IMG/VR virus record: IMGVR_UViG_2531839665_000013
DNA: 32,154 bases
From: a virus
Taxonomy: Duplodnaviria; Heunggongvirae; Uroviricota; Caudoviricetes
Strand: one strand, 5' to 3'
A program made the position numbers and the translations under genes. Shown piece after piece: positions 7,333 to 32,154 of the stretch. A model generated the notes under the pieces. It made no database searches, was not told the origin of the DNA, and worked only from the letters and a program-made list of their open reading frames with translations. Numbering within the stretch: position 1 is the stretch's first letter; each line of letters opens with the position of its first letter.

Positions 7333-8277
7333 ATGATTTTTCTCAAGAATGGCGAAAGTTTTATTCGCGTGAATGACTGGGCAGAAATTCAGGCGAGAGA
7401 GTCTTACTATCCCAAATTAGAGTTAAATGATCAGCAACTCTCTGACGTTTTTGGTTACTACGATGACCTACCAGAGGAAATTCCATGTGGAAAATCAAAT
7501 TGCCGCAAAGGGCATAAAAAGGGATTTCTGGTAGTTACGAAAGAAGGATTTGAAACGAATATCGGCCATGTATGTGGAACTAATGTTTTTGGTATAGCCT
7601 TTGATAATTTAGCAATAGAACTTTGCCGAAAAGCAGATTTCCATCGCTTACTTACCGCACTTAAAGAGGCAAAAGATGATATTTTTAGCTATTACAAACT
7701 CAAAGCCAAAATCGAATCTGGGCGTCCATCACTAACTGAGGTTGCTCATAGAATACTTGACATGAAAGACCCTAAAATCATCGGGCGTGCAGCTTATCAA
7801 ACATTGAAAAAGATGGCTGCTTCTGGTGATGGGCGTGTTTTCCGCTCAAGATTAAAAAATACAGAAGAGCTAGAACTGGACGAAATTATGTCCCAGAAGC
7901 AAACAAGCGACTCAGCTCCAAAAGTTAACAACAAAAACAAAACCGTAAATGAACTTATTGGGGTAATACAATACCCTGAATGCTTGCTGAATGATTATGA
8001 CATTGCTCTTCTTTATGAAAGAGATATAAAAATGGTTCTGGAAAAATTAAACAAATGTACCCCAGATGAATTGACTGAAAGAGAGGTGTTGTCTTTTGGA
8101 ATAAAGGTTTCAAGATTAAGAGAACGCTTTAACTTTGTTCAGGAACGCTTAGAAAAATCCAGGGTTTTTGCAACAAGAGAAAACCTTAAACCTTTACGTG
8201 CATTACTTAACATTCAGAAATCTGTAAGCAATAAAGACAAATTACTATTTAAGAAATTTATGGAAAATTTACCATAA
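7333..8277 (+). CDS. Hypothetical protein (314 aa), AT-rich, antisense to the late operon
   Basis: Long ORF with AAGGA RBS; visibly more AT-rich than flanking phage genes; followed by a stem-loop at 8285-8302. Confidence 0.7.
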   Translation: MIFLKNGESFIRVNDWAEIQARESYYPKLELNDQQLSDVFGYYDDLPEEIPCGKSNCRKGHKKGFLVVTKEGFETNIGHVCGTNVFGIAFDNLAIELCRKADFHRLLTALKEAKDDIFSYYKLKAKIESGRPSLTEVAHRILDMKDPKIIGRAAYQTLKKMAASGDGRVFRSRLKNTEELELDEIMSQKQTSDSAPKVNNKNKTVNELIGVIQYPECLLNDYDIALLYERDIKMVLEKLNKCTPDELTEREVLSFGIKVSRLRERFNFVQERLEKSRVFATRENLKPLRALLNIQKSVSNKDKLLFKKFMENLP

Positions 8278-8284
8278 TTAAAAA

Positions 8285-8302
8285 ACCCGCTATAAAGCGG
8301 GT
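8285..8302. terminator. Bidirectional stem-loop (ACCCGCT-ATAA-AGCGGGT); T-run on the minus side (candidate tR') and terminator for the 7333-8277 gene
   Basis: Read directly; A-run at 8281-8284 gives a T-run after the hairpin on the minus strand; sits about 110 nt downstream of the Q-like gene. Confidence 0.5.
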
Positions 8303-8413
8303 TCCGTGTTAATTTTTATATTGGCGCTAAACCCCATAATTAAAATGATACAAGACAATTTTATGCAAAGTCAAGTCGGTTGCTCAAAAATCTCTCCGCC
8401 AAAGCTGTTCAGA

Positions 8414-9229
8414 TCAGTAACTCGTTGCCTTCTCAAATTCTCTAGCCGCATGCCGCTCACCTTGATGCAGGATATCAACCAATTTTTCATAGAATGGTTT
8501 CCAATTGCGCGACCATGAAGACTGGTGCAGATCGGGAATGTATATTTGAATAGCTCGATGAACATTAGCTGATTTGATAGATACGAATCCCTTTCCACTA
8601 CAACGCTCGCAGATTTTAAACACTGGCACACCACGCTCGCTTGTGGCTTTGCGGTCCAGTACCTCTCCCTTTCCACCACAACGACACCTGGCACTTATCA
8701 CTCCCTTCCCTTTACATACATCGCAAACGACTGGTACAACTTCCGTTACCTCTGTCCATTTTTCCCAGTCTGACGGTCGAACAGCACGGGAGCGACTGGC
8801 CCAATATGGTGCTTTACCCCATGGGTATGAAACCTTACGAATGACCTGCTTACGGGGTGTTAGTCCGGTACCACTGCAACTATGGCATGTTACGCTGGTG
8901 GCCGCCGATCGGGAATACTCAGCAAAAGCAAACTGAGCCAGTACCAGCATACACCAGCCAAATTCACCACCAGCTGCTTTACGCACATTCTTCGGTGCAA
9001 TTTCCATCGCGTGACGCGCCAGCGCCTGGACTGCCATCTGCTCATCAGTCTTGCTGATACCGGCCTTCCCGAAGAAGGCCGCCAGGCCAAACCGCTCACG
9101 ATTGCTGGTGGTACCAATAGCCGCCATAACATCGGTGCCTGTAAGACGTTCCGGAGAGGTTCCTTTCACATCGTCGCCGATATACATTCCCTGAGGACTG
9201 AAGTATTTTAGCGATGCCTCAAGCTTCAT
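8414..9229 (-). CDS. Late-gene antiterminator Q-like protein (Cys-rich zinc-binding)
   Basis: 271 aa immediately upstream of terminator and late genes; several CxxC motifs (CHSCSGTG, CDVCKGKG, CERCSGKG); position and size fit Q of non-lambda families. Family assignment is by recollection only. Confidence 0.55.
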   Translation of the reverse strand: MKLEASLKYFSPQGMYIGDDVKGTSPERLTGTDVMAAIGTTSNRERFGLAAFFGKAGISKTDEQMAVQALARHAMEIAPKNVRKAAGGEFGWCMLVLAQFAFAEYSRSAATSVTCHSCSGTGLTPRKQVIRKVSYPWGKAPYWASRSRAVRPSDWEKWTEVTEVVPVVCDVCKGKGVISARCRCGGKGEVLDRKATSERGVPVFKICERCSGKGFVSIKSANVHRAIQIYIPDLHQSSWSRNWKPFYEKLVDILHQGERHAAREFEKATSY

Positions 9230-15410: not shown

Positions 15411-15598
15411 TAACTCCATTAAATATTCTTGAGGAAGTGGCAGCACAAATAAAAGAGAATACATCAACGCTTGAATTTATATTTAAGAATTCGCCTGATT
15501 CAGGAGAGACAGACGATTATTTATGTTGCCTCATTCGCTCCATGAATAAAACCTGTGAAATGGCTTACGAGTATATCGACACACTGCGCAACGAATAA
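15407..15598 (+). CDS. Hypothetical small protein (63 aa), coupled (ATGA overlap) to upstream ORF
   Basis: AAGGAG RBS; stop/start overlap at 15407-15410. Confidence 0.5.
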   Translation: MITPLNILEEVAAQIKENTSTLEFIFKNSPDSGETDDYLCCLIRSMNKTCEMAYEYIDTLRNE

Positions 15599-16996: not shown

Positions 16997-17185
16997 ATGA
17001 ACATTTATTTCAGAATAGTTATATCACTGGCAATTATCACATGTATTTACGGATTAATCGTTCCGGCCCTCATATCAATGAAGGATACGGTAGCAGTGAT
17101 TTCTGGCTTTGCTCTGGCGTGTCTGACCCCGCCCTGCATTTATGCCATTTATAAGGGTCTTTCTTTTTCTAAGGATAAAAGATGA
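16997..17185 (+). CDS. Small membrane protein (62 aa, two predicted TM helices)
   Basis: AGGAGG RBS; sequence is almost entirely hydrophobic; overlaps the next gene by 4 nt. Confidence 0.55.
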   Translation: MNIYFRIVISLAIITCIYGLIVPALISMKDTVAVISGFALACLTPPCIYAIYKGLSFSKDKR

Positions 17186-18009
17186 AAAAATTACTTTTTG
17201 CTTTAGCCCTTGTTCTGCCGACCATTGGCCTTGTCGGTTGCGATCGCGTTGAGCCTGGTAATGTGGGCATCAAAGTAAACAAACTTGGCGACGATAAAGG
17301 CGTCGGTGAAGTGGTCGGTGTTGGGCGCTACTGGACGGGATGGAACACTGAAGTTTACATCTTCCCAACCTTCAAACAAATGAAGACCTACGATGAGCCG
17401 TTCAGCTTCCAGATGAGTGACGGCACAACCATTGGCTATCACATCGGTGTTGCCTACAAAGTTGATCCATCCAAAGTTACCACGGTGTTTCAGACCTACC
17501 GCAAAGGCGTGGATGACATTACCGATACTGACCTGCGCCAGAAGATCGCCGACGCACTCAATCGACTGGCCAGCAAAATGACCACTGACAAATTTATCGA
17601 CGGCGGGAAGTCTGAACTACTGGATGCAGCTCTTAAAGACATTCAGGCAGAAATGACGCCCATCGGTATTCAGGTAATGAGTCTCTCATATGTGGGTAAG
17701 CCGGAGTACCCGCCAACCGTTATCGACAGCATTAATGCCAAAGTCACGGCGAACCAGAAAACCCTGCAACGCGAACAGGAAGTAAAACAGCGCGAAGCGG
17801 AAGCTAACATGTTGCGCGCGGAAGCTGCCGGACAGGCAGATGCGATTCGCACAAAAGCCCAGGCCGAGGCCGATGCTATTCGTTTACGCGGTGAAGCTCT
17901 GCGCCAGAACCCTGGCGTCATGGAGCTGGAAGCCATCAACAAGTGGAACGGTACTCTGCCGCAATACATGACCAGCGGTGCCAATACACCATTTATCCAG
18001 ATTAAATAA
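17182..18009 (+). CDS. SPFH/band-7 (stomatin-prohibitin-HflK/C) family lipoprotein
   Basis: Lipoprotein signal MKKLLFALALVLPTIGLVGC; C-terminal Ala/Glu-rich helix ...AEANMLRAEAAGQADAIRTKAQAEADAIRLRGEALRQNPGVMELEAINKWNGTLP typical of SPFH proteins. Confidence 0.8.
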   Translation: MKKLLFALALVLPTIGLVGCDRVEPGNVGIKVNKLGDDKGVGEVVGVGRYWTGWNTEVYIFPTFKQMKTYDEPFSFQMSDGTTIGYHIGVAYKVDPSKVTTVFQTYRKGVDDITDTDLRQKIADALNRLASKMTTDKFIDGGKSELLDAALKDIQAEMTPIGIQVMSLSYVGKPEYPPTVIDSINAKVTANQKTLQREQEVKQREAEANMLRAEAAGQADAIRTKAQAEADAIRLRGEALRQNPGVMELEAINKWNGTLPQYMTSGANTPFIQIK

Positions 18010-18900: not shown

Positions 18901-20187
18901 ATGAGTAACGCATCATACCCGACAGGCGTTGAAAACCATGGAGGATCACTCCGTATATGGTTTCACTATAATGGCAAACGTGTCAGAGAAAACCTCGGTG
19001 TTCCTGACACAGCCAAAAACCGGAAGATCGCTGGTGAACTTCGCACTTCCGTTTGTTTTGCAATCAGAATGGGGAGTTTCGACTACGCCGCGCAGTTCCC
19101 TAATTCCCCTAACCTGAAACACTTTGGTCTGGGAAAAAGAGAGATAACCGTTAAGGCACTTTCGGAAAAATGGTTGGACCTTAAGAAAATTGAGATAGGA
19201 AGTAATGCATTCAGTCGGTATCAATCCGTGGTGAGAAACATGCTTCCTCGCATAGGGGAAAAACGTCTTGCTTCGTCGGTAACAAAGGAAGATTTACTGT
19301 TTATCAGGAAAGATTTGTTAACCGGGTATCATAATCTCTCTAACGGAAAAACAACGCCGATTAAAGGGAGGTCAGTAGTTACGGTTAATTACTACATGAC
19401 GACAATTGCAGGAATGTTTCAATTTGCGGCTGATAACGGCTATATCGTGTCAAACCCATTTAACGGCCTGACACCATTAAAGAGATCCAGAACAGAACCA
19501 GATCCGCTCACACGAGACGAATTTATTCGTTTTATTGATGCCTGTCACCATCAACAAACGAAAAACCTGTGGTCCTTAGCAGTATACACAGGCATTCGTC
19601 ACGGTGAGCTAATATCTCTCGCTTGGGAGGATATTGATTTAAAAGCTAAAACAATGACTATCCGTCGTAATTATACAAAACTCGGGGAGTTCACTCTACC
19701 AAAAACAGAAGCGGGAACTGATCGTGTTATTCATCTTGTTCAACCAGCTGTTGATGCCCTGAAAAGCCAGGCTGAAATGACAAGACTTGGCCCTCAGTAT
19801 CAAATTGACGTCAAGCTTCGGGAGTTCGGTCGCACTGCACGCCATGAATGCACGTTTGTTTTTAATCCGCAACTGGTGAAAAAATGCCAGCAAGTCGGTC
19901 ACCACTATAAAGCAGATTCCATCAGAGATTCCTGGGCATCTGCATTAAGGCGAGCAGGACTGCGGCACAGAAAAGCCTATCAGTCCAGGCATACTTATGC
20001 CTGTTGGGCATTATCGGCAGGAGCGAATCCAAGCTTCATAGCAAACCAAATGGGCCATGCAAATGCACAAATGGTATTCAACGTTTACGGAGCATGGATG
20101 AAAGATAACAATATCGGGCAAATAGAACTACTCAATAAGCAGTTGACGGAGAGTGTCCCATACATGCCCCATAGAGCCAGACTCTGA
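18901..20187 (+). CDS. int: Tyrosine integrase (lambda Int family)
   Basis: 428 aa; C-terminal catalytic region with ...YTGIRHGELISL... (Arg), ...HANAQMVFNVYGAWM... and RHTYA; N-terminal arm-binding-like region; last gene before the host junction. Confidence 0.9.
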   Translation: MSNASYPTGVENHGGSLRIWFHYNGKRVRENLGVPDTAKNRKIAGELRTSVCFAIRMGSFDYAAQFPNSPNLKHFGLGKREITVKALSEKWLDLKKIEIGSNAFSRYQSVVRNMLPRIGEKRLASSVTKEDLLFIRKDLLTGYHNLSNGKTTPIKGRSVVTVNYYMTTIAGMFQFAADNGYIVSNPFNGLTPLKRSRTEPDPLTRDEFIRFIDACHHQQTKNLWSLAVYTGIRHGELISLAWEDIDLKAKTMTIRRNYTKLGEFTLPKTEAGTDRVIHLVQPAVDALKSQAEMTRLGPQYQIDVKLREFGRTARHECTFVFNPQLVKKCQQVGHHYKADSIRDSWASALRRAGLRHRKAYQSRHTYACWALSAGANPSFIANQMGHANAQMVFNVYGAWMKDNNIGQIELLNKQLTESVPYMPHRARL

Positions 20188-20229
20188 AATAATATCTTTA
20201 AATATCAGTTGTTTTAATGGTAGTTGCCG

Positions 20230-20625
20230 TCACATTAACTGCGTGGAGGGCAACACCACGCTTTACGCCCTGCCGAAACCCGAGGTTGTCCTGCGCTGGC
20301 GTGAACAGACCACAGATGACTTCCGCTTCTGTTTTAAGTTTCCGGCGACCATTTCGCATCAGGCAGCATTACGACATTGCGATGATTTAGTGACTGAATT
20401 TTTGACCCGCATGTCACCGTTGGCTCCGCGCATTGGGCAATACTGGCTGCAACTGCCTGCCACATTCGGCCCACGGGAGCTGCCTGCGCTTTGGCATTTT
20501 CTCGATTCTCTCCCTGGCGAATTTAATTATGGTGTGGAAGTCCGCCATCCACAGTTTTTCGCCAAAGGGGAAGAGGAACAAACTCTTAATCGCGGTTTAC
20601 ATCAGCGCGGCGTTAATCGGGTGAT
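20230..20625 (+). pseudogene. Fragment of a host chromosomal gene flanked by two mobile elements; possibly yecE (DUF72)
   Basis: Mid-GC ORF with no start of its own beginning right after int and ending where the AT-rich element begins. The yecE identity is from recollection that yecE is a lambdoid/Stx phage insertion site, not from alignment. Confidence 0.35.
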
Positions 20626-20697
20626 TTTCATCAGACACGTTTAAATACACCACCTAAAGCGATACAATCGCGCTATTAGTTTTTATGGTGGTAAAGA

Positions 20698-22221
20698 ATG
20701 AAACGTGTAATCAGCTACATCAGATTCAGTTCTGAGCGACAAGCCAAAGGCGACTCACTACGCAGACAGTCTAAGATGGTTAATGACTGGCTTAAGGCTC
20801 ATCCTGAGTACTACCTTGACCAAGATTTATCCTTCCGTGATTTAGGTGTGAGTGGATTCACTGGTAAGCACTTGAAAGGTGGCTTAGGTGACTTCTTAAC
20901 CGCTATCGAGAAAGGGCTTGTTAAAGCTGGTGATACGCTCTTGATAGAATCTCTTGACCGTTTGTCACGTCAGGCCGTAGACCGAGCAAGTGAGCTATTA
21001 CGAAACATTCTTCGCTCTGGTGTAGATGTAGTCACCCTGTCCGATGGTGAACATTACACAAGTGAGTCTCTTAAAGACCCGTTAGCTCTGATTAAGTCCA
21101 TCTTGATTATGCAAAGAGCACATGAAGAGAGTCTGCGTAAATCTGAACGTATACAAGCTGCATGGAACCGTAAAAAAGAACTCATCTCTGAAGGTATCAA
21201 GATTTCTAAGCGTTGTCCTGCATGGTTAAGGCTGAATGATGACCGTAAAAGCTTCTCTGTAATCCCTGAGAAGGTAGAAACTGTGAAGAGGTGCTTTCAG
21301 CTACGATTAGAGGGTAAGTCTATCTGGGAGATTGTTCGGACTCTTAATGATGAAGGTCACCAGACGCTTAACCAGCACAAAGCGGGTTCATTTGGTCAAA
21401 GCTCAGTACAAGACCTTTTGAAGAATCGTTCTGTAATTGGTTACTTCACACCTAAAGGCTGTGAGGAGATATCTGGTTATTTCCCCCCTATCATCCCTGA
21501 GACTGATTTCTACAAAGTCCAGCAACTATCATATTCTCGTTATGGAAGAAAGCCTGCTTCAGATAAACCATTGAGTGTGAATCTCTTTAAAGGTGTTATC
21601 CGTTGTTCTGAATGTGGTCATGCTCTGATTATCACAGGCTTTAGCGATACAAGAAACGGGATTTATCGTTGTCCTCTTCGTAATGAAAACCGTTGTAGTG
21701 CTAAAGGGCTGTCACGTAAGCAAACCGATGGTACATTGCTTACCCTGCTATCTCGTCTTGACCGATTTGATAGCGATACGACGAATACCATAGATATGTT
21801 GAGGCTACACCGTGAACACATCTCAAGCAATATTGAAAAGCTGGTACAGCTATCACTTGAAATTGAAGATTTGTCAGCTATTACCATCAAACTAAAGCAG
21901 TTAAAAGGTGAGCTATCACAGGTTGATGCGGATATCGAGAAGGAGACACAACGCCTTAAATCTATTGATGTGGGGTGTTTGTCCGATTGTGACTTGACTA
22001 CAAAGGCGGGAAGGATTGAAGCACAACTGATAATCAAAAGTGCTGTTAAAGAGGTCGTTTTAAATACTGCTAAACGTCGCTGTAAAGTAACTTTTCACAA
22101 CGGTAAAGCAATCACCTTACCAATAACAGAAAACCCCTCAGAGGACGTTACAGAGGCTATACAGTCGCTTTCTGAAGTCACTGAGAGGGGGTTGATAGAT
22201 GTTGATGAGGTTATCATATAG
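20698..22221 (+). CDS. Large serine recombinase (resolvase/invertase N-terminal catalytic domain + recombinase domain + zinc ribbon)
   Basis: N-terminus VISYIRFSSERQ (catalytic Ser), ...LLIESLDRLSR...; 507 aa; Cys cluster CSECGH...YRCPLRNENRC; long C-terminal coiled coil. Confidence 0.88.
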   Translation: MKRVISYIRFSSERQAKGDSLRRQSKMVNDWLKAHPEYYLDQDLSFRDLGVSGFTGKHLKGGLGDFLTAIEKGLVKAGDTLLIESLDRLSRQAVDRASELLRNILRSGVDVVTLSDGEHYTSESLKDPLALIKSILIMQRAHEESLRKSERIQAAWNRKKELISEGIKISKRCPAWLRLNDDRKSFSVIPEKVETVKRCFQLRLEGKSIWEIVRTLNDEGHQTLNQHKAGSFGQSSVQDLLKNRSVIGYFTPKGCEEISGYFPPIIPETDFYKVQQLSYSRYGRKPASDKPLSVNLFKGVIRCSECGHALIITGFSDTRNGIYRCPLRNENRCSAKGLSRKQTDGTLLTLLSRLDRFDSDTTNTIDMLRLHREHISSNIEKLVQLSLEIEDLSAITIKLKQLKGELSQVDADIEKETQRLKSIDVGCLSDCDLTTKAGRIEAQLIIKSAVKEVVLNTAKRRCKVTFHNGKAITLPITENPSEDVTEAIQSLSEVTERGLIDVDEVII

Positions 22222-22235
22222 TTGAGATTCTATCG

Positions 22236-23009
22236 TCAGTATCGCTTGTTAGGATTAACAGAATACTTCTTCAAAGTACTACCTGTACCAGCATTATTAA
22301 GCACCTTTGAAGCTTGCTCATTAGCGGCATCTGAGAAGGTGCTTTTTCCATTCTCAACTTTGACACTTTTACCACAATTGATACGGGCTTGAAGTTGCTC
22401 ATTAGTGAGTTCACTCGTAGAGCGATTATATAGCTCCTGACACATCAACATACCATTACCTAAACTTGTTGTAGTGTTACCTGTATTCTTCTTACTGGTA
22501 GCACCACCATCATTCGTAGTCGCGGCTTTTCCAGTTGCAGCCGAGATATCAGTCTGTCCCACAACAGCTCTGAAGTTAATTTCCTGAAAAGTTAGTTGGA
22601 TTCTTAATCCGTTTGAAATTCCAACATCTTTAGAGGCTTTAAAACTCGTAATAATGGAATCATCAATCTTGATACCGTCTTTACAGATGACCGAAATAAT
22701 TTGCTTCTGGTCACGCCAGCTTTCGAGAGTGTCAATGAAGTTTTCTACTAATTGACCCTGACGAGTTAATAATAAGCTTCCTTCATAGCCAACTACAACG
22801 ACACCACTAATAGTGATTGTTCTGGGTGCTCTTTGCACATTATCTGTGACGGTTTGCCCTGATTGCATGTTCTGTGTAGTCACCTGCATAGGACTATCAA
22901 ATTCCATGTTTTCAGTTGCTGATAAGGTTAAGAAGGCATCTACATTGTCTCTTAAGTGGAAATAGATGCCATCTTTGCCACTATATCTAAGTTGTTTTTT
23001 GTCAAACAT
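22236..23009 (-). CDS. Hypothetical protein (257 aa) downstream of the tape-measure gene; possible distal tail protein
   Basis: Position only (gene after TMP); Thr/Gly/Asn-rich central region. Confidence 0.55.
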
Positions 23010-23098
23010 TGTTGTATTCCTCTTAAGGGTGAGCTACATGAATACACCTGAGTAGTTATAGGTCGTAATTTTTAATTTTCACGTAGAACACCGTTAAA

Positions 23099-25147
23099 TC
23101 AATCATCTTCTGGATAGCTTGAACTTAATAGCGTAGCTTCTGCGTATTGGTCGTAGATATTACTGCTAAAGGTCATAAAGCTGGTTTCATCTGGTTTAAT
23201 GGCAACTTCACCACCAAGTGAAACTTTCACAGGCTCCTGAATACGTTTGCTCAAAGCACTAATTTCATCTCTCAGGCTTTGGATATCCGTATTCGTTAAT
23301 GCCGCATCTTGTCTCATGGTGATTAATTCTGGATGCTGGAAGTTAGCAAGATTCATAGCTGCACTATTAAACCAACCTTTCACATCATCCATAGTGAACA
23401 CTGGTTTAAGTCCAGACTCTTTAGCTAGCTCTGGTAATTTAGCTTGTGCTTCCATTCGTTCAGGTGTAGAAGCTAATCTCTCATAACCTGCATAGATAGC
23501 ACTACCAGCTAATAGCATATTCCCAAGATTAAACCTTGATGGTTTCCCGTTCTTTCTATTCACGTTATCCGCTGTAGTATCAGCGACCTGACCTAATCTT
23601 GTGATAGCAGTCATAAGCCCGTAAATACTTCTGGTTACACCAACAACTTTATTCACAGCAATAACACCAGCCAAGACTTTTAAACTATTAATCAAGCCAG
23701 AACCTAAAGCATCAACTACTTTCTTTTGTTCATCGGTTAAACCACGATAAGCTAATGTCACCTCATCGAAGAATGCTCTTACCCTGTAAGAAATATCGGT
23801 TAGTGAATCGACCCCATGCGACATATCACTCATCAAGCTACCAAAACTTTCACCTAATGTTTTACCACTCCCACCTAAACTATTTAAAAGATTGGTTAAG
23901 CTTCTTGTGAAATCTTGAAGACCATCTTCAGAACCTCTGAAGATATCCGTTAGTGAGTTGTTCCAAGTATTCTTCAAGTTCCCTAGCATTGTCTGCGTAG
24001 AGTCCTGAATAGCTTTCCAGCCACCTCTTGAATTAATCTGTGAACCAAGTTCTTTAGCAAACTTAGGGAGTGCATCAGAGGCTTTAACATCACCATTTTT
24101 CATCTTATCGAAAAGCTGTTTTTCAGTCAGACCTAAAGCCTTTGCAAATGCCTGAGTAGCACCCGGTAAAGCTTCAGATAGTTGCCCCTTAAGTTCTTCA
24201 GCCATCACCTGACCCTTAGAAGCCATCTGCGACACTGCGGTTAATGCTCTTTGAATCTGCTCATCTGAACGACCCATTAAACGAGAATAACCTGTAAGGT
24301 TTTTAAATAATTCCTCTGCCCCTTCAAGACCCATCGTGTTCTTTGCAGATGCACCAAATGAAGCAAATTGCGCTTGTGTTTCGGTTGTGTCCATACCAGT
24401 AATTTGAGTTAAATCCTGAATGAACTTTTTAACCTGTGTACTTTGGTCACCGAATACGAAATCAATACTTCTTTCCGATGATGCACGTTGAAGGCCAACT
24501 TCCATAATCTTCTGATAACTGGCTAATACAGCCTGAAAGCTGATAAATGCACCTGCTGTTTTAACTGCTGCTGAACTCAAACTATCAAGACTATTAGCTG
24601 CTCTGTCACCATTAATGCTGGTGGATGTATGACCTTTAGCTTTAGCAATTGCTTCTCTGACTGAAGCATTTAGCTGAGCCAGCTTCTCATTGAATTTTGA
24701 AGAATCCATTGAACCGGCTTTAGCAGATAGCCCGTAAAACTGAGATTTGATGTATTTCTGCAAAATAGGGTCAAAGCCTTTTAGCTTAGACATATTAGCT
24801 GAGTAAGCCGCTGTGATTGCTCTGTTGCCGCTAATTCGTGGCTGTCTTGGTTGTTTTGGAGGATTAACAGTGTCATTAAATCTGGTGGCAAACTGAAATG
24901 CTCTTGTGTTTCTTGCTCTCTGTTCAATCTTGTCAAAGGTCTTATTAAACTTCCTTTCAAGTTGCCCTAAAGAACTTGTCAGATTGCTGTCAAGCTGCTT
25001 TGTATTAATCCTGAAACCTTTATTTAGGTTCTTTTCAATTCTTTGTGCTGACTGCAAAGCTGCCTTTTCAACTCTTTGCAAGCCCTTAATAACGTTTTCA
25101 CTGAAGCCTAGCTCAACGATAAAACTATCAACTTTAAACTGTGCCAT
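23099..25147 (-). CDS. Phage tail tape measure-like protein (682 aa)
   Basis: Core motif ...MASKGQVMAEELKGQLSEALPGATQAFAKALGLTEKQLFDKMKNGDVKASDALPKFAKELG... is typical of tape-measure proteins; AAGAGGTGA RBS. Confidence 0.75.
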   Translation of the reverse strand: MAQFKVDSFIVELGFSENVIKGLQRVEKAALQSAQRIEKNLNKGFRINTKQLDSNLTSSLGQLERKFNKTFDKIEQRARNTRAFQFATRFNDTVNPPKQPRQPRISGNRAITAAYSANMSKLKGFDPILQKYIKSQFYGLSAKAGSMDSSKFNEKLAQLNASVREAIAKAKGHTSTSINGDRAANSLDSLSSAAVKTAGAFISFQAVLASYQKIMEVGLQRASSERSIDFVFGDQSTQVKKFIQDLTQITGMDTTETQAQFASFGASAKNTMGLEGAEELFKNLTGYSRLMGRSDEQIQRALTAVSQMASKGQVMAEELKGQLSEALPGATQAFAKALGLTEKQLFDKMKNGDVKASDALPKFAKELGSQINSRGGWKAIQDSTQTMLGNLKNTWNNSLTDIFRGSEDGLQDFTRSLTNLLNSLGGSGKTLGESFGSLMSDMSHGVDSLTDISYRVRAFFDEVTLAYRGLTDEQKKVVDALGSGLINSLKVLAGVIAVNKVVGVTRSIYGLMTAITRLGQVADTTADNVNRKNGKPSRFNLGNMLLAGSAIYAGYERLASTPERMEAQAKLPELAKESGLKPVFTMDDVKGWFNSAAMNLANFQHPELITMRQDAALTNTDIQSLRDEISALSKRIQEPVKVSLGGEVAIKPDETSFMTFSSNIYDQYAEATLLSSSYPEDD

Positions 25148-25174
25148 TGTTCATATTTCACCTCTTAAGTGTTC

Positions 25175-25206
25175 ATAGACTTCGGATAGAAGACTATCCT
25201 CATATA
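25175..25206. promoter_or_regulatory. 32-bp element ATAGACTTCGGATAGAAGACTATCCTCATATA (copy 1), containing palindrome GGATAG-AAGA-CTATCC; upstream of the TMP gene
   Basis: Identical copy at 26891-26922. Confidence 0.6.
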
Positions 25207-25301
25207 CAAAAAAGGGAGAAACTACCGAATAATATCGATAATCTCTCCCCGTGTTATAGATTCGATAGAACCTATCTCATACACCCAACCAATTCTTTTT
25301 T

Positions 25302-25511
25302 TTAATGCCTGACAAGATAATGTAATTCCGTTTCACCTATGATTTGGGCATCAGAAGGGATACGGTCGATACACCACTTTGGAATCTTGCGTGTTTTTGG
25401 TTTGTGTGAGGTGATAACTTGACGTTTGTTTTTAATTCTTAAGGCTGGATTGGCTTGTAACTTTAAGTTTTCACAAACAGACCGAATAGTCTCTAAACGT
25501 TCTTCAATCAT
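25302..25511 (-). CDS. Hypothetical small protein (69 aa)
   Basis: GAGGTGA RBS directly before the ATG; start context TGAGGTGATGAATG shared with the next gene. Confidence 0.45.
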   Translation of the reverse strand: MIEERLETIRSVCENLKLQANPALRIKNKRQVITSHKPKTRKIPKWCIDRIPSDAQIIGETELHYLVRH

Positions 25512-25533
25512 TCATCACCTCATAATTCAATTT

Positions 25534-25842
25534 TCACTCCAAGAAGCGAATGCACTTTACACCGCGTTCATTCTTTACAATTTCGTAACGTATTGAGAGA
25601 CCAGCTTTATCAAAGATAGATTCAAGCCGTCCTACATCACGCTTGAGGTCTCTAATAAGGAAGGTTAAATCATCTCGACCCTCAAACTTTAGTTCGGCAA
25701 GAGGCTTTTCTTCCATACGACCAATAAGATATTCAGTGACCTCCTGAATATCACCAAGAGTCGTTTTAATTTCATTGAACCTATCTTCAAAAGGTTCCAT
25801 TACCCCTTTAATTCTTTTATCGCGTTCTGTTAAATCATTCAT
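25534..25842 (-). CDS. Hypothetical acidic protein (102 aa)
   Basis: GAGGTGA RBS; ORF from track. Confidence 0.55.
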   Translation of the reverse strand: MNDLTERDKRIKGVMEPFEDRFNEIKTTLGDIQEVTEYLIGRMEEKPLAELKFEGRDDLTFLIRDLKRDVGRLESIFDKAGLSIRYEIVKNERGVKCIRFLE

Positions 25843-25850
25843 TCATCACC

Positions 25851-26555
25851 TCAAATAGCCTTGCTAAATTCTCGTGGAACACTCAGAAAATCATTGAAGC
25901 TGATAATCTGTGCCAACTCTTGACGGTACTCCTTAGCCAACGCTTGATGGTCACTAATCAGCTTAGCCAGTCTTGATTTCAGCAAATTAATCTCATTTTC
26001 TCTTGCTTTCATCAGTTTCTCTTTGGCAATTTCTTCAAGCTCAGCCTGTGATTTATCAGCAACAATTAGAGACAGTCGATGTGGTGCTCTGACAGCTCTT
26101 TCTGTACGAATAACTCTTTGACCTTCTGGTAAATCTGCAATCACTTTACCAATCTCTACAGGGTCATACCCCCAACCGTCACGGTCCAGTCGAGAGAAAT
26201 AAGCATAAGAATTGGTTTGAAGCTCCATCGAAATAGCCATTTCGTCAATTTCGTCTTCAAGCTTGGACTGAATTTTCTCGTAAACACTTCTCATTGCTTC
26301 TTGAGAGTCTTTAATAGCTTGGAAATATCGGCGTTGTAGCTTCAACTTCAAATCAAGTTCACACTGTTCGTTCATAGAAAAATCAATTTCAACTCTTGGA
26401 ATCTCGAGTGGTTCTGGTGGAATATATGGACCTTTATTTACTTCGTGTGATTCCCGCCAAGCTCTATCAAAAGATTCACGCAAAGTTAATTCGTGAATAT
26501 CAAGTGCACTTGGTCGGCTTTCAATAATCATTTCATTTTCATCACGGATAGCCAT
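25851..26555 (-). CDS. Hypothetical protein (234 aa), highly charged with coiled-coil character
   Basis: ORF from track. Confidence 0.6.
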   Translation of the reverse strand: MAIRDENEMIIESRPSALDIHELTLRESFDRAWRESHEVNKGPYIPPEPLEIPRVEIDFSMNEQCELDLKLKLQRRYFQAIKDSQEAMRSVYEKIQSKLEDEIDEMAISMELQTNSYAYFSRLDRDGWGYDPVEIGKVIADLPEGQRVIRTERAVRAPHRLSLIVADKSQAELEEIAKEKLMKARENEINLLKSRLAKLISDHQALAKEYRQELAQIISFNDFLSVPREFSKAI

Positions 26556-26890
26556 TAATACCTTTCCTCTTCTAAGATAATTTATGTTTCAGTTTTTAAA
26601 AAGCACACCTGACATCCTCGAACTTAGAAGAGGCTTAAAAGGCGGTTTGCCAAGTATGCTTTTTAAAAGCTGAAAAAGCCCTAGATAACTAAAACGCTAT
26701 AAAGGGCTAAGGTGAAGAAATTAAAGAACATCTAAAGGATTCAATGAATGAACAAAGACTTTTCGAGATGACCTCTCAGACTAACCTGAAAGGCCATGTA
26801 GCGAAAAGCATTGCACCTTTCCAACTCAGAATATAGTTATCATCGATGTAGAATGATTAATATTTTAATTCAAGGAGAATTGCTCCCCCT

Positions 26891-26922
26891 ATAGACTTCG
26901 GATAGAAGACTATCCTCATATA
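26891..26922. promoter_or_regulatory. 32-bp element, copy 2 (identical to 25175-25206)
   Basis: Read directly. Confidence 0.6.
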
Positions 26923-26979
26923 TACAATTATGTCATGCTCAAGGTTATTTGTCAACAGCTTTTAACAGATTGGTAACAT

Positions 26980-27045
26980 TTATACTTTAATAGATGCACC
27001 TGCAATCATACCAATCAATACAAAACAGATAATCACCAATCCCAT
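26980..27045 (-). CDS. Possible 21-aa hydrophobic peptide (MGLVIICFVLIGMIAGASIKV), TAATG-coupled to the upstream gene
   Basis: Hand-translated; start overlaps the stop of the 27045-27374 ORF. Confidence 0.25.
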   Translation of the reverse strand: MGLVIICFVLIGMIAGASIKV

Positions 27046-27374
27046 TAATGCACCACCTTCGAATCCGTCACCAAAATATTGTCAGCGTACAAAATTGCTA
27101 TAGCTGCCTTGAGATATCTTTCAGGGCTAACGCTGTATTTGCTCGTTTGCTCGATAACCAATCTTTTCATGTTGCTGTCTTTAATTGGTAGCATCATTCG
27201 AGGCTCGTTAAACTCCACCGACTGAATAAAGTCAGAGATGCTTTCCGCATTATCAGTCATTAACTCTAACAACTTATCAAAGTCAATGCTAATACCTGCA
27301 TCAGTGAAGCTTTGCACCATCATAGCGGTGTCGTTATCAATAAAAATCTGTAGTGGGAAGTTTAATTCTCTCAT
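27045..27374 (-). CDS. Hypothetical acidic protein (109 aa)
   Basis: AAGGAG RBS; ORF from track. Confidence 0.55.
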   Translation of the reverse strand: MRELNFPLQIFIDNDTAMMVQSFTDAGISIDFDKLLELMTDNAESISDFIQSVEFNEPRMMLPIKDSNMKRLVIEQTSKYSVSPERYLKAAIAILYADNILVTDSKVVH

Positions 27375-27523
27375 TTCCTAAAATCTCCTTTTTACCATAC
27401 CTCCTCAATCGCTCTGTAACGAGCTAAACAGTCTTTTTCAGGGGTAGCATGTAGGGGTGTACCACATACCTAAAATAAGATAGTTTTTTGCGTTAGAATG
27501 CGATTGAGAGCGTCTGAGAAGCT
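27375..27523 (-). repeat. Left arm of a ~150-bp imperfect inverted repeat (promoter/5' leader of the 27045-27374 gene)
   Basis: Aligns by eye with the reverse complement of 30293-30445; shared blocks GCTTCTCAGACGCTCT, TTAGAATGCG, TAAAATAA, GTGGTACA, CTACCCCT, GCTCG(T/C)TACAGAGC. Confidence 0.55.
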
Positions 27524-27552
27524 GTTTTTCTAATTTCTCTTAAAGTCTCGGA

Positions 27553-27753
27553 CTACCAATAACCTAATTCCGCTTTATTTCGTTCAAACCATTCCGCTGT
27601 AACTGCTGTCTTTAGTGTTGCGTTTGGGCTGGTGGCATGAATGAAGATATCTTTTGGATTGCAAGCATCACCGAAACCACCTTCTTTGATGAGCAGGTCT
27701 GATACATGCTTAATCATTTTATCTGTCAAATATTCGAATTTAATACATAGCAT
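27553..27753 (-). CDS. Hypothetical small protein (66 aa from the Met that overlaps the HNH stop)
   Basis: TAATG overlap with the upstream HNH gene; the track ORF extends to 27786. Confidence 0.45.
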   Translation of the reverse strand: MLCIKFEYLTDKMIKHVSDLLIKEGGFGDACNPKDIFIHATSPNATLKTAVTAEWFERNKAELGYW

Positions 27754-28025
27754 TAAATCTCCAGTAGTAAATTGTTTGGGTCGCAATTTCTTTTATTACC
27801 ATCCCTGAAGATAATTTTTTTAGTTGCCTGAACTTCATGATGCAAAAACCAGATGACATACTTCAGATAATAATCACGAGTGCCATAACGAATCATTGGA
27901 TTACCGTAAGCATCATCTCTTGTCTTAACTTCTCCACCATCAATCCATTCAAGCATTCCTGTTTCGTAATTAATCATGAAGTAAGTTGCAAAGAACCGTT
28001 TAATATCATCTCGCCATTGCTTCAT
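27753..28025 (-). CDS. HNH-type endonuclease (small, homing-endonuclease-like)
   Basis: ...HHEVQATKKIIFRDGNKRNCDPNNLLL... fits the HNH His...Asn...Asn pattern; AGGAAG RBS. Confidence 0.6.
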   Translation of the reverse strand: MKQWRDDIKRFFATYFMINYETGMLEWIDGGEVKTRDDAYGNPMIRYGTRDYYLKYVIWFLHHEVQATKKIIFRDGNKRNCDPNNLLLEI

Positions 28026-28027
28026 AA

Positions 28028-28309
28028 TCAGACTTCCTGAGACAGTTTGTGAATTTTGATACTTAGTAACCTTGCTAAATCCAGTCCAAAAGCATTTAAA
28101 GATTTCAGACTATCAAGGTCATCTTTCTTAATCCTGACATGGTGTCTTGCTGCCTCTAAACGACTATTAAGCAAATCCTGCTCGTTAATATCACGGTTAA
28201 TTGCAAGCTTCATCACTGCTGAGTGTGGCAGACCTGTAATGTTTTTGATTCGGTTAAGTTCTTCAAAGGCTGTCTTTGTAACTCTGGTTAGCGTGTGTTT
28301 ATTTCCCAT
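28028..28309 (-). CDS. Hypothetical small protein (93 aa), possibly a DNA-binding regulator
   Basis: Internal Met of a track ORF; ATG sits 1 nt after the upstream stop (TAA-A-ATG). Confidence 0.45.
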   Translation of the reverse strand: MGNKHTLTRVTKTAFEELNRIKNITGLPHSAVMKLAINRDINEQDLLNSRLEAARHHVRIKKDDLDSLKSLNAFGLDLARLLSIKIHKLSQEV

Positions 28310-28310
28310 T

Positions 28311-28865
28311 TTAAAATTCCTCTGCTTGTGCGTATACGTCAAATTCAAAGTCTGGTTCACTGGTTGTAAGGCTGATATTTCCAACTTCCGCATGATGATT
28401 AATTGTCTCAATAACTTTCATGCAAATAGTGGCTAAGTTAGCGCAATATTTATCACTTGGTAATTCGTAGCTAAGTCTGGTTGCTTGTCTTTGAAGATGG
28501 CTCGTCACTGTGCTTGAACTAATCTCATCAAGGCTTCGAAGCAAATAAAAAACCTTCCGGTGATAGTTATCCCTTCCAAAGCTGCGACAAGTACCGATAA
28601 TTACATCTTCAATTTTTGATGGTAGTTGCTCGTAAGAATCAAAGCTCATCAAGAAAGTTTTTAAAGTATTCTCTTTTTCTTTGCGTACTGGCATAAATCT
28701 GTCTCGTGGCGTAATGCTACGAATGACCGCTTCAATGTTTTTACGTTCGGTTTTGGAAAAGGCTGGTACTTCGTAGCTGGTGGGGGTGTCTGTGTAAGCG
28801 TAGGAGTTGTGCTTGTTGCGCTCTCTTGATGCTTGAAGCATCGCTCTAAATTCTCTGTCGTTCAT
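28311..28865 (-). CDS. Hypothetical protein (184 aa)
   Basis: ORF from track; first gene after the long non-coding region. Confidence 0.6.
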   Translation of the reverse strand: MNDREFRAMLQASRERNKHNSYAYTDTPTSYEVPAFSKTERKNIEAVIRSITPRDRFMPVRKEKENTLKTFLMSFDSYEQLPSKIEDVIIGTCRSFGRDNYHRKVFYLLRSLDEISSSTVTSHLQRQATRLSYELPSDKYCANLATICMKVIETINHHAEVGNISLTTSEPDFEFDVYAQAEEF

Positions 28866-29375
28866 TCATATTCTGACCCTCATGAAATGTTATTATTCTG
28901 TTAACTTATATATACAATACTAGCATTTTCAAAGACTAATGTCAAGTATTTTTTAACATTTCATTAACATCTGTGGTATAATGGTTCTATGAGAGAGGGG
29001 GAAATATGAAGCGTGGCTATGTATTTGGTCACATGTTTTTGCATTGCACACAGAAGGTACATTGAATGGTAAATCTCCCTCCTGAGCTGGGGTCACCTGA
29101 TGTATGGGCTGGTGGAGGTGTTGGGCTGATTGCAGGTCTTCTGCTCCGCTATTTCATCGTTCGGGTGTTTATCGTGTTCAGATTGTTTGGTCGTGAATGG
29201 TCATTTGACCTCAAGGACAGGACCAGAACAGACAACCACACAGACCCCCGTTAAACTCCCTTCAAATCCCCCTGTACGAGATGGTATAGGGGCATTTTTA
29301 GCATTTTGTGCTATCTATTAAAAAACAGCTTGACAGAACCGGAAGGCTGTATCTATCAAGTATTCACCCCTCTAA

Positions 29376-29530
29376 CAGTGATTTCTAAAAATGCTTATTT
29401 TTCAATGAGTTGTAATTAGCCAATATAAAGGACTGACAAGACTCTTCACAGAGAACTCTGTAACCTTAACATTGATTTCTAAAAGTTATTATTTTTCAAT
29501 AAGTTGTAATCACCCAATATAATAGCTGTT
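29376..29530. repeat. Two ~60-bp direct repeats (29376-29435 and 29469-29530) inside the coding-poor region
   Basis: (C)AGTGATTTCTAAAAATGCTTATTTTTCAATGAGTTGTAATTAGCCAATATAAAGGACTG vs ACATTGATTTCTAAAAGTTATTATTTTTCAATAAGTTGTAATCACCCAATATAATAGCTG; most positions agree. Confidence 0.6.
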
Positions 29531-30292
29531 CAGCACCTTCACAGGGAAACTTCAGAGGCCTTCTTAACCGTCCACTAATCGAGAGAGAGGGTGATACATG
29601 AGAAAGAACCCTCCCTTCTTAAAAACCTTCTTGACAATCTTTACAGACCTTGTTCAAGGTAATCACAATAGTTTTCTTCCCTCGGTTTCCTGTGTTCCTC
29701 GGTTTATCTATTGAGGGCTTTGAAATGTCCCTGTAACTTCCCTCTTAGACAGGGAAGAATAATATTGGTGACACAAGCGAAGCGCCCCTCTAAAAAGATT
29801 TTTTAGCTACTTTGTTTAAAAGCACATCAAACGATACATTTTATTGATTTAGGTCAAAGACAAAAGCATTGACAAAATGGTAAGATTGTTCACATGACCT
29901 TACTTAACAGATTCTTGAGAGCTTTGAAACGGCCTATTTAACAAGGTTACTACCTCTGGTCTTATCGCTCCCTCTTGGTAGTTCTGTTAAGAATTTTTCA
30001 GTTTTTATTCTTAAGATAATTGTTAAGATGATACTCTCCCCTTCGGGTTATATCGTATCTTTCCTCCCGTTAAACACTCCTTCCTAGCAACTTCATAGTT
30101 ATCTGTCAAGTACCTTTGAAGATTCTATCAAAACCCTCTAAATCCGACCTGATATAGAAGTTTTACAGGCATACTCTCTAGATACCATCAAGGGACACTA
30201 AGCGGGAGAGAGGATATGGTGACCATAGGGGAACCCCTCCTGTTAAAAAGACCACTTAGAAGTCTGAGACTTTAGTAAAATCTGTGAATATG

Positions 30293-30445
30293 GCTTCTCA
30301 GACGCTCTGTAACGCATTCTAAGCGATTTTACCCCTTTATTTTAAGATGGGTGGTACATACCTATAGACTACCCCTAAAACTGGGGTTAAAACTCGCTAC
30401 AGAGCTTTCTATGAGGTTTGGTAAGATTGTGCAAAATCTGTACAG
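30293..30445 (+). repeat. Right arm of the ~150-bp imperfect inverted repeat
   Basis: See the left arm at 27375-27523. Confidence 0.55.
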
Positions 30446-31070
30446 TAACTTTTCAGAGTCTGAAAATTTTTATAAAAATCATAGTAACCCCTCTACATTT
30501 CCCTTCACCGATAATCTTAAAAAATATCTACACAGTTGATTCGGTAGAATCTACCTCATGATTGATGGCTGTTAAGTACCCCAGATTCACGATATAGCAC
30601 CCCCTTTGCAAAAGCAGTTAAAATATCTATTGACTTTCTTCATAGCATCTGTTTAGCTCCACCTCAAGAAACCTTCACCACACTTCAAAGCATCTATCAA
30701 GAAGATTTAACCTATCAATAGCTGTAAAATTTTATAGTCCTGTGAAGTCCTCCCCAGTTTTCTCTGTAACAGCTACAAACTTCTGTGACCTTATGTATCA
30801 ATGACTTAGAATACATGCTCTCAAGGTTCTGTATAGTCTCTTATCATCCAATACATAAAACCCTTATAAATCAGTACTGATATGTATACAGTTCGTTTTT
30901 AACATAATAGCTGTTTTACGCACTAATCGTGTTCTACATGAAATCTGTATAGATATTAAGGTGTCTGTAAGTGATTTTTTAAGAGGAGCTACGAAGAACT
31001 ATAACCATCATCTCCTAACTTTCACATGAGAAACTGTTAATCAGCTTGATAGTTACACCATGTGACCAAC

Positions 31071-31318
31071 TGCATAGATAGCGTTATATAGCACTGTATA
31101 TAGCACTTTTCTAGGAGTCGAGAGAGGGACGACTAACACCCTGCATAGCTCCCTGAAAAGAGACTTCACAGATTCTTTATATATTTCAATAAGTTATGAT
31201 AAAAAGGGACTATACCGATACTGCATAGAATCTGTGTAGAATTGCATAGATACTTGGAAAAATGCCTTTAAATTGCATAGGTACTAACCTGTTTATGTCC
31301 TGTTATTTACAGGCATAG
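31071..31318. repeat. Iteron-like cluster: TGCATAG at 31071, 31142, 31222, 31244, 31274 (and GCATAG at 31313), plus TATATAGCAC x2 at 31086-31107
   Basis: Read directly. Confidence 0.55.
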
Positions 31319-31320
31319 CA

Positions 31321-32154
31321 TTATTGGTTAATTAATTCATCCGACTCTATATCATTACCTTTTTCTTTTTCCTTTTTAATTTTAGCCTCTACCATATCGA
31401 ACATTTTCATTGTCTGTGATGAAGTTAGCTCTTTCTTTTGTCGTAGTGCATTACGTATGGTAGAAGCTTCAATATCAGAAACTGTTAAAAGTTCTTCTAC
31501 CCTACTCTTCAATTGCTGTAATGAACGGCTATTATCAACTTTAAAGAAATCATCCATTACCTCAAGTGAGGCAACAATCAAATCCTGTAGTCTCTCTTTT
31601 TCTATCTCGATATTTTCAATGGTTTGTTTTTCTTTAGATACTAACTGCTTTAAATTATTAATTTCTTTCTGAATCAGTTTCTTCTCTGTCTGTAGCTCTT
31701 CTGTGACCAGCTCTTCACGCTTACCACGCTCTACTTCCGCTTTAATATCAGCATCAATTTTAGCATTTTCTTTCTCTTCTTCTCTGGCAACCCGAACCTT
31801 TAACCCCGTTAACCTGATTGAATTAAGGTATTCTTTTTCCTTTGTAAGATAAACATTTTCACTGTGTTTATCTGTAGCCCATTTTTGAGCAAGAGAAAGT
31901 AACCATTGAGCATAAGGAGTAATAACAGCTAGCACACTTCCAAAAAAGACAGGTGCTAACAGATAATGTACATAAAAATATTCCTGAGACAGAATATAAT
32001 CTATTCGAAACTTAACAGGAGCATCACTCATAAAGAGCATTGCTAAGTTAGGCCAATTGAACCATACCCATGCAAGAATGATATATCCCCATAATGGGCT
32101 TTTAATCCTATCGTTTATTGCTTGCATAGTAGAATCTAACCATCCATCACTCAT
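31321..32154 (-). CDS. Hypothetical membrane-anchored coiled-coil protein (277 aa); start codon at window edge, may extend beyond
   Basis: N-terminal hydrophobic segments (LWGYIILAWVWFNWPNLAMLF; LLAPVFFGSVLAVITPYAQWLL) followed by a long Glu/Lys-rich heptad-like region. Confidence 0.55.
   Translation of the reverse strand: MSDGWLDSTMQAINDRIKSPLWGYIILAWVWFNWPNLAMLFMSDAPVKFRIDYILSQEYFYVHYLLAPVFFGSVLAVITPYAQWLLSLAQKWATDKHSENVYLTKEKEYLNSIRLTGLKVRVAREEEKENAKIDADIKAEVERGKREELVTEELQTEKKLIQKEINNLKQLVSKEKQTIENIEIEKERLQDLIVASLEVMDDFFKVDNSRSLQQLKSRVEELLTVSDIEASTIRNALRQKKELTSSQTMKMFDMVEAKIKKEKEKGNDIESDELINQ

Follow-up and report, generated by a model that had tools for sequence, protein, structure and literature searches.

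A yecE fragment between a lambdoid prophage and a serine-recombinase island in viral record IMGVR_UViG_2531839665_000013

The viral record IMGVR_UViG_2531839665_000013 (Caudoviricetes; 32,154 nucleotides, hereafter the window) raises the question of what gene a coding segment lying between a phage integrase gene (int) and a serine recombinase gene belongs to, and how it came to be there. A preliminary description of the locus had noted a coding segment of intermediate GC content without a start of its own directly 3' of int (stop at 20187), suspected that it was part of yecE, and proposed that one host gene had been hit twice, by a lambdoid prophage and by a second element whose serine recombinase gene begins at 20698. 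Each of these proposals was borne out in the current study, the part of the segment that can be aligned to yecE being 20227-20628. This part is almost certainly the middle of the chromosomal Escherichia coli gene yecE, isolated by two independent, conservative site-specific integrations, one by a lambdoid prophage of the yecE family and the other by a member of an apparently undescribed island family with virulent-phage tail genes.

The yecE fragment and its two junctions

In a BLAST comparison, window positions 20227-20628 aligned without gaps to nucleotides (nt) 78-479 of the 819-nt yecE gene of E. coli K-12 with 98.0% identity over 402 bp, and the best intact alleles reached 99.5%. The possibility raised beforehand, that the segment matches no chromosomal gene, is answered by matches to the fragment in 5419 of 5426 complete E. 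coli genomes. Its translation matched the Pfam family DUF72 (E = 6e-34) at profile positions 17-138 of 217, which is an internal part of the domain. The BLAST search of the window against K-12 yecE returned no other pieces of the gene; the complete 819-nt open reading frame (ORF) with its own start is absent from the window, where nt 78-479 only are present. The GC content is lowest in the phage arm (27.7% for 20188-20234), highest in the fragment (52.5%) and intermediate in the island (38.8%). An open yecE frame extends from a GTG at 20153 as far as a stop at 20642-20644, but this GTG lies inside the 3' end of int, in another frame than int, and the stop lies 16 nt into the island; the open frame across the fragment is an accidental read-in and read-out. 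Lacking its own promoter and start codon, and holding only part of the DUF72 domain, the fragment is considered inert. No decay beyond allelic variation was found in it, which is consistent with recent insertions, although not diagnostic of them.

The left junction can be assigned as the int-proximal attR of a yecE-targeting lambdoid prophage. The integrase is 100% identical in amino acid (aa) sequence to IntR of more than 20 Stx1a-, Stx2a- and Stx2d-converting phages, including Stx2_12E129_yecE and PPyecE_EH1910, and 99.5% identical to Int of EH297; integrases of this EH297/intR type have been linked to the yecE insertion site (PMC5592225). Furthermore, window positions 20150-20300 are 100% identical to the reverse complement of LC567842 (Stx2_12E129_yecE), in which the 21-bp att repeat of the window, CCGTCACATTAACTGCGTGGA, is annotated at 403-423 as a repeat_region ('duplication due to insertion'). 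The gene yecE has been described as an integration hot spot of Stx phages with a 21-bp att that contains the core (PMC8112680). By comparing attR (window), attL of the same prophage type (strain ARS-C301) and attB (K-12), we derived a perfect 11-bp core, TTAACTGCGTG, at 20235-20245, corresponding to yecE nt 86-96. It is flanked as ...GTAGTTGCCGTCACA-TTAACTGCGTG-GAGGGC in attR and as ...TATGCCCGCCACT-TTAACTGCGTG-ACGCAACA in attL, and it is the reverse complement of the published yecE att core CAYGCAGTTAA (PMC5592225). At 20230 and 20234, where attR differs from attB, the bases are of the phage type in attR and of the host type in attL, and strand exchange therefore occurred to the right of these positions. 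The core had been expected within 20188-20235; the 21-bp repeat overlaps this interval in part, while the core itself lies slightly to the right of it.

The right junction can be identified as the recombinase-proximal attL of an island of ~11.4 kb. In thousands of genomes, intact yecE alleles cease to match exactly at 20628, so that the boundary earlier placed at about 20625 was approximately correct and is now set at 20628/20629. The left island junction in the window reads GGGTGATT-TT-CATCAGACACGTTTAAATACACC (shorter form GGGTGATT-TT-CATCAGAC). The right island junction, as present in ARS-C301, reads GGTGTATTTAGACCTTGCTAATC-TT-AGACAGCCGCC (shorter form GCTAATC-TT-AGACAGCC) and is followed by yecE nt 478-819 and yecN. 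The dinucleotide TT is the only sequence common to both. In strain AR434, which has the island and no prophage, a T-rich overlap contains the same TT, with slightly different arm sequence. When attP was rebuilt from the half in the window and the right end of the ARS-C301 island, it formed an imperfect inverted repeat centred on TT, with 20 out of 32 positions symmetric and a perfect pair of 10-bp arms (GGTGTATTTA/TAAATACACC).

The adjacent gene encodes a large serine recombinase. Its best match among 50,697 phage records is a YbcK-like protein with only 36% identity, while copies with 91-95% identity to the recombinase occur in contigs of IMG/VR. We attribute the integration to this class of enzyme because of the domain architecture, the 2-bp crossover and the absence of a target duplication. 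A transposon-type mechanism, which would have duplicated its target site, can be rejected, as nothing beside the island is duplicated beyond TT. The alignment with uninterrupted alleles thus delivered both junctions and the att cores for which it had been suggested, and not the target duplications. In the literature covered here and below, which did not include all journals, no published account of an integration site at yecE nt 478/479 was found.

The whole arrangement can be followed in ARS-C301, where the order is yecD, yecE nt 1-96, a ~50-kb Stx1a prophage, int, yecE nt 78-479, the island, yecE nt 478-819 and yecN. The three pieces in this strain (1-96/98, 78-479 and 478-819) together cover the full 819 nt of yecE, from which we conclude that both integrations were conservative. 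The window covers the central part of such a locus, ending before the prophage attL on one side and ~94 bp before the island attR on the other. Based on these comparisons, we propose that the tyrosine integrase of the lambdoid prophage recombined at the 21-bp att (yecE nt 78-98), leaving attR at 20227-20247, and that the serine recombinase of the ~11.4-kb island recombined at TT (yecE nt 478-479), leaving attL at ~20606-20651, in either order. In the source strain, the right island junction would be expected to read GGTGTATTTAGACCTTG...TT-AGACAGCC, followed by yecE nt 478-819, ~94 bp past position 32154. Given that both integrations are conservative, an intact yecE would be regained once the two elements excised precisely, and both are predicted to be still able to excise.

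Among the complete E. coli genomes, the junction between phage arm and yecE is present in 95 of 5426 and that between yecE and island in 280. Both occur together in four genomes (ARS-C301, JB2, O111:H8 99.1145 and LZSFT34), against ~4.9 expected under independence, and we therefore regard the double hit as chance co-occurrence of two site-specific elements.

These comparisons establish the identity of the gene, both junctions, the types of the two recombinases and the agreement with the published att. Some points nevertheless weigh against the proposed double integration: the partner junctions were taken from ARS-C301, where the island is only 82-92% identical to that of the window; the activity of either recombinase in the source strain is a prediction; and no candidate for a recombination directionality factor is recognisable by sequence in the island, such factors sharing no common family. 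Alternatively, the yecE stretch could be a non-chromosomal copy borne by a mobile element, as described for the 'attB-in-prophage' copies of PPompW. Stretches of 100 bp that resemble yecE and include the 21-bp attB are indeed known from prophages (PMC8112680), and on one circular contig (L029, see below) ~280 bp of yecE are fused to an island. However, the prophage copies comprise ~100 bp with 87% identity to yecE, compared to 402 bp with 98-99.5% identity to chromosomal alleles here, and the ends of the fragment coincide exactly with the two att sites. In ARS-C301, moreover, the remaining yecE pieces adjoin yecD and yecN, in chromosomal synteny. We thus consider a mobile copy very improbable, and retain the reading of the fragment as the middle of the chromosomal gene.

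A split yecE is in itself ordinary, a recognised phage target gene flanked by a familiar type of prophage and by another site-specific element, and the fragment has chiefly annotation value as a pseudogene piece that marks a doubly occupied yecE. The locus also shows that yecE holds two unrelated att sites ~390 bp apart (nt 78-98 and nt 478-479). Since the island also occupies yecE, its junction being present in ~5% of complete E. coli genomes, 'occupied yecE' assays for locating Stx phages, by PCR or in silico, can be confounded by it.

The island family and its tail genes

Part of the island was matched in ~550 of the 5426 complete E. coli genomes. AR434 and ARS-C301 share its architecture at yecE, as does TD225-C4 between tonB and yciI, where the large serine recombinase is only 35% identical to that of the window. 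In TD225-C4 (L004), a 13-bp sequence, TCAAGGGTCATTG, is found at both island ends (4100-4130 and 15420-15440), by which the tonB start codon is preserved; contig L021 is an integrated copy at tonB. Single island proteins have homologues in Shigella, Citrobacter, Salmonella and Enterobacter too. The 234-aa protein, searched against GTDB species representatives, matched E. albertii only. No published description of this island family was found in the literature covered.

A search of IMG/VR with the attP pattern gave no match. A degenerate form of the pattern had one match in the metagenome collection, contig L009 (ERZ1090866 NODE-760, 11,473 bp), in which the attP junction (2941-2973) joins the right-end cargo to the recombinase gene via ...CCTTGATGATT-TT-TATTAGACACG.... 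This contig is one permuted island unit with no host gene, and its recombinase region is 88% identical in DNA to the window island. Its ends gave no terminal overlap that would indicate circularity, and one of them reads into a Nextera adapter, as judged from the ORF translation. From the junction it follows that an excised circle, a concatemer or a tandem array of a related island exists in nature.

Another contig, L029 (Logan SRR29454733_31861, 11,680 bp), forms a circular path by a 30-nt terminal repeat (k-1). Its recombinase is cut to 470 aa by a premature stop, and it carries the island attL together with a piece of yecE (~280 bp, window 20348-20628) that is joined via a GCAT microhomology to the interior of the 277-aa gene. 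This structure resembles the product of an aberrant excision, or else a tandem unit that includes host DNA.

Besides the recombinase, the island carries genes for a tape measure protein (TMP) and a Dit-like baseplate protein, in the same order as gp118-gp119 of the Felixounavirus garuso. These are the only island proteins with a match in the whole garuso genome. The Dit-like gene has up to 98.7% DNA identity over 536 bp to strictly virulent Felixounavirus phages, and its product is 81% identical in aa sequence to garuso gp119, residues 6-185 being nearly identical while the C-terminal ~70 aa differ. The TMP is 29% identical overall to Felixounavirus TMPs, with the first ~45 aa and a C-terminal LLSSSYPE motif conserved; a closer relative was not found, no phage among the 50,697 records having a TMP more than 30% identical. 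Conserved ends with a diverged body are what would be expected of proteins that dock into the tail-assembly pathway of another phage. Exact 14- and 15-mers shared by the island and garuso were 2-3 times as frequent as expected from mononucleotide shuffling, which is not interpretable as shared cis sites. The literature covered contained no published satellite of Felix O1-like phages.

Gene content of the two elements

The positions of the att features and of the genes of both elements are listed in Table 1.

Table 1. Features of the doubly occupied yecE locus and of the island, with their positions in the window
Feature	Position	Strand	Basis or remark
Excisionase, 84 aa	18613-18867	+	Pfam DUF1233 putative excisionase, E = 2e-29; xisR in the syntenic ARS-C301 locus
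Tyrosine integrase, 428 aa	18901-20187	+	Pfam Arm-DNA-bind_2 and Phage_integrase
Phage-derived attR arm, AT-rich, int stop to att repeat (39 bases)	20188-20226		No match in intact yecE; identical to LC567842
att repeat CCGTCACATTAACTGCGTGGA, 21 bp	20227-20247		LC567842 repeat_region
Middle fragment of yecE (DUF72), inert pseudogene piece	20227-20628	+	BLAST, Pfam; in frame, no internal stop
TT crossover dinucleotide, yecE nt 478-479	20627-20628		Only sequence in both junctions
Island half of attL and recombinase upstream region	20629-20697		Holds attP inverted-repeat arm TAAATACACC at 20642-20651
Large serine recombinase, 507 aa	20698-22221	+	PF00239 Resolvase, PF07508 Recombinase, PF13408 Zn_ribbon_recom, all over curated cut-offs
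Dit-like baseplate protein, 257 aa, Felixounavirus-type N-terminal domain	22236-23009	-	Pfam Dit_like, E = 3e-20
Tape measure protein, 682 aa	23099-25147	-	Pfam TMP_3, PHROG tape-measure families
Leftward operon of island-specific small genes (69, 102, 234, 109, ~66, HNH 90, ~93 and 184 aa)	25302-28865	-	
HNH protein, 90 aa	27753-28025	-	
~93-aa gene	28028-28309	-	
Divergent promoter-like pair (within 28917-29292)	28917-28982		Consensus scans 10-11/12, extended -10
Rightward 19-aa and 62-aa (hydrophobic) ORFs	29007-29254	+	62-aa ORF annotated in TD225-C4
Terminator-like hairpin	29269-29292		Downstream of the 62-aa ORF
ORF-free conserved ~2-kb region with repeats GAGAGAGGG and TGCATAG	29300-31320		No ORF of at least 70 aa
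Last island gene, 277 aa, hydrophobic N-terminus and coiled coil	31321-32154	-	PHROG families of unknown function only

The prophage body is a mosaic, of which at most 34% is covered by any single phage record. Its genes include those for lysis, a nanS-p-like esterase, antiterminator Q, a primase, a helicase, an SPFH-family protein, xis and int. Neither an stx gene nor a late-strand ORF of at least 100 aa lies in the interval from the nanS-p-like esterase (4635-6485) to Q (8414-9229). Non-Stx phages at yecE have been reported (PMC8112680), and stx is hence not needed for membership of the yecE integration family. The same interval (6485-8414), which is the usual place of stx in yecE-type Stx phages, contains two tRNA-Arg genes (6961-7037 and 7051-7127) and, on the plus strand, a 314-aa ORF (7333-8277) that matches phrog_7003 (unknown function) and has no Pfam match. 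The SPFH/Band-7 gene (17182-18009), coding for a lipoprotein-like product of 275 aa, is located among accessory genes ~0.6 kb upstream of xis/int and is a possible moron gene.

In the operon of small genes, the HNH protein is the only product with a family match; searches of the island-specific ORFs in PADLOC, NCBIfam, Pfam and PHROG gave nothing else but a sub-threshold DndE/RHH-like hint. The gene order of this operon is kept in ARS-C301, AR434, TD225-C4 and the metagenome contigs, and its homologues in E. coli, Shigella, Citrobacter, Salmonella and Enterobacter are all annotated as 'hypothetical'. The AlphaFold2 (AF2) model of the 234-aa protein is poor (pLDDT 60, long helices). That of the 102-aa ORF upstream of the TMP gene has a pLDDT of 75 and consists of a helical hairpin and a beta hairpin; a Foldseek search of the PDB with this model gave no match at E <= 0.001, generic helical hairpins only, and the ORF has no sequence similarity to the garuso chaperones.

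The roles of the putative promoters and terminator in 28917-29292 are assigned from consensus matches. The 62-aa ORF between them is conserved, with a hydrophobic helix, and could encode a small membrane toxin or a holin-like peptide. The ORF-free region that follows is 75-92% identical among island family members. Each of its GAGAGAGGG units is followed by a short ORF or a hairpin, the TGCATAG repeats lie near 31060-31320, and a 56-nt direct repeat (29373/29467) is also present. Rfam gave no match in 20100-32154 at E <= 0.1; the region may hold small RNAs, a replication origin or operator sites. The window ends at the start codon of the 277-aa gene; in ARS-C301, the homologous gene borders on the attR junction, beyond which lies yecE nt 478-819.

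Relative to the window, ARS-C301 is longer by 48 bases (L002 20531-20578; indel at ~20663 of the window) in the interval from the island attL to the recombinase gene. These bases contain a hairpin, GGATGAAGCATCC, and the reverse complement of this sequence is present at the right end of the AR434 island (L005 ~27830-27870). It is possibly a small repeat, mobile or accessory to the recombinase, located close to the ends of the island.

Possible roles of the island and comparison with known systems

The island is the part of this locus with wider potential than the fragment. Considering its tail genes, we hypothesize that it could be a satellite or parasite of, or a tail decoy aimed at, virulent Felix O1-like (Ounavirinae) phages, working like Vibrio PLE; we see this as a real possibility, somewhat short of an even chance. 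Infection would trigger excision of the island via its serine recombinase, its own TMP and Dit-like hub would plug into the tail assembly of the helper through the conserved interface regions, and the outcome would be spread of the island, poisoned helper tails, or both. The TMP termini and the N-terminal domain of the Dit-like protein, which are nearly those of Felixounavirus, with DNA in part up to 98.7% identical, point in this direction, as do the compact, conserved organisation with swappable large serine recombinases and the excised, concatemeric or circular forms seen in L009 and L029. In addition, Ounavirinae infect the genera in which homologues are present (E. coli, Shigella, Citrobacter and Salmonella), and there is a precedent in PLE, which has its own TMP, tail assembly chaperone and baseplate hub and forms chimeric tails (PMC12987554). 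On the other hand, all of this support comes from sequence comparison, and a pure decoy-defence role fits equally well. Library scans of the island recognised no homologue of a PLE marker besides the recombinase class, and no gene for replication, packaging or capsid remodelling. The candidate for a tail chaperone (102 aa) has no structural match, and no cis sites shared with the helper genome were detected.

The main alternative is that an ordinary temperate prophage once entered yecE and decayed, leaving the island as a remnant and not as a discrete functional unit. Only two virion genes are present, replication and packaging genes were not recognised in the island scans, insertion sequence (IS) elements interrupt many island copies, and the NCBI annotation of ARS-C301 has internal stops in the TMP gene and in one other gene. 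In the window, however, the recombinase, TMP and Dit-like genes are intact. The same compact gene order of ~11 kb recurs across genomes and metagenome contigs, with ~550 partial matches among the 5426 genomes and homologues in other genera, and a different large serine recombinase (35% identical) serves a second site, tonB-yciI. An attP junction and a circular contig exist, and in the 50,697 phage records identity does not exceed 30% for the TMP or 36% for the recombinase. Decay of a prophage thus appears unlikely to us. We tentatively propose, as one possible view, undescribed Enterobacteriaceae islands of ~11 kb that use interchangeable recombinases to enter yecE at nt 478/479 or the tonB start codon, and that may parasitise Ounavirinae via their own TMP and Dit-like hub, a counterpart of PLE without homology to it. 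If a satellite or decoy against Felix O1-like phages is what the island represents, it would offer, in a host amenable to genetics, a system for virulent phages comparable to PLE. Such a role would matter as well for phage therapy with Ounavirinae and for biocontrol of E. coli and Salmonella, because ~10% of complete E. coli genomes carry related sequence.

Both integration reactions have known counterparts. Large-serine-recombinase integration of the phiC31/Bxb1 type proceeds with a 2-bp crossover at an imperfectly palindromic attP. The island shares with it the domain architecture of the enzyme, a 2-bp crossover without other identity between the att sites, an imperfectly palindromic attP and the position of the recombinase gene beside attL, although its recombinase is only a distant relative of the characterised enzymes. 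With the Stx and lambdoid prophages of yecE (Stx2_12E129_yecE, PPyecE, EH297), the window prophage has in common the integrase, the int-proximal arm, the 21-bp att with its core and the orientation relative to yecE; unlike the Stx prophages, the window copy is without stx. The attB-in-prophage copies (PMC8112680) also have yecE sequence beside prophage DNA and the same 21-bp att, but they are located in prophages at ompW, whereas the window sequence is the true chromosomal gene.

Among satellites, the P4-like, PICI and cfPICI families differ from the island in that its integrase is a serine recombinase and not a tyrosine integrase, and domain scans found no AlpA, primase-replicase, Sid/Psu/Delta or capsid/terminase-small protein of these families in any island ORF. 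The core markers of PLE are repA, nixI, capR, lidI and M1-M7 (PMC10085698), and scans of Pfam, PHROG, NCBIfam and PADLOC found no homologues of them among the island-specific ORFs. As there is no recognisable PLE marker besides the recombinase class and the chaperone candidate is unconfirmed, we do not file the island as a PLE. PLE itself is a large-serine-recombinase satellite of the virulent myovirus ICP1 in Vibrio cholerae and builds chimeric tails (PMC12987554). The host and helper lineages differ, and the island, a putative counterpart of PLE, is shorter (~11.4 kb, about one-seventh of its 86-kb putative helper, compared to a median of 17.7 kb for PLE). Like PLE, it is small, carries a large serine recombinase, and combines it with TMP and baseplate-hub-type genes related to those of a virulent myovirus.

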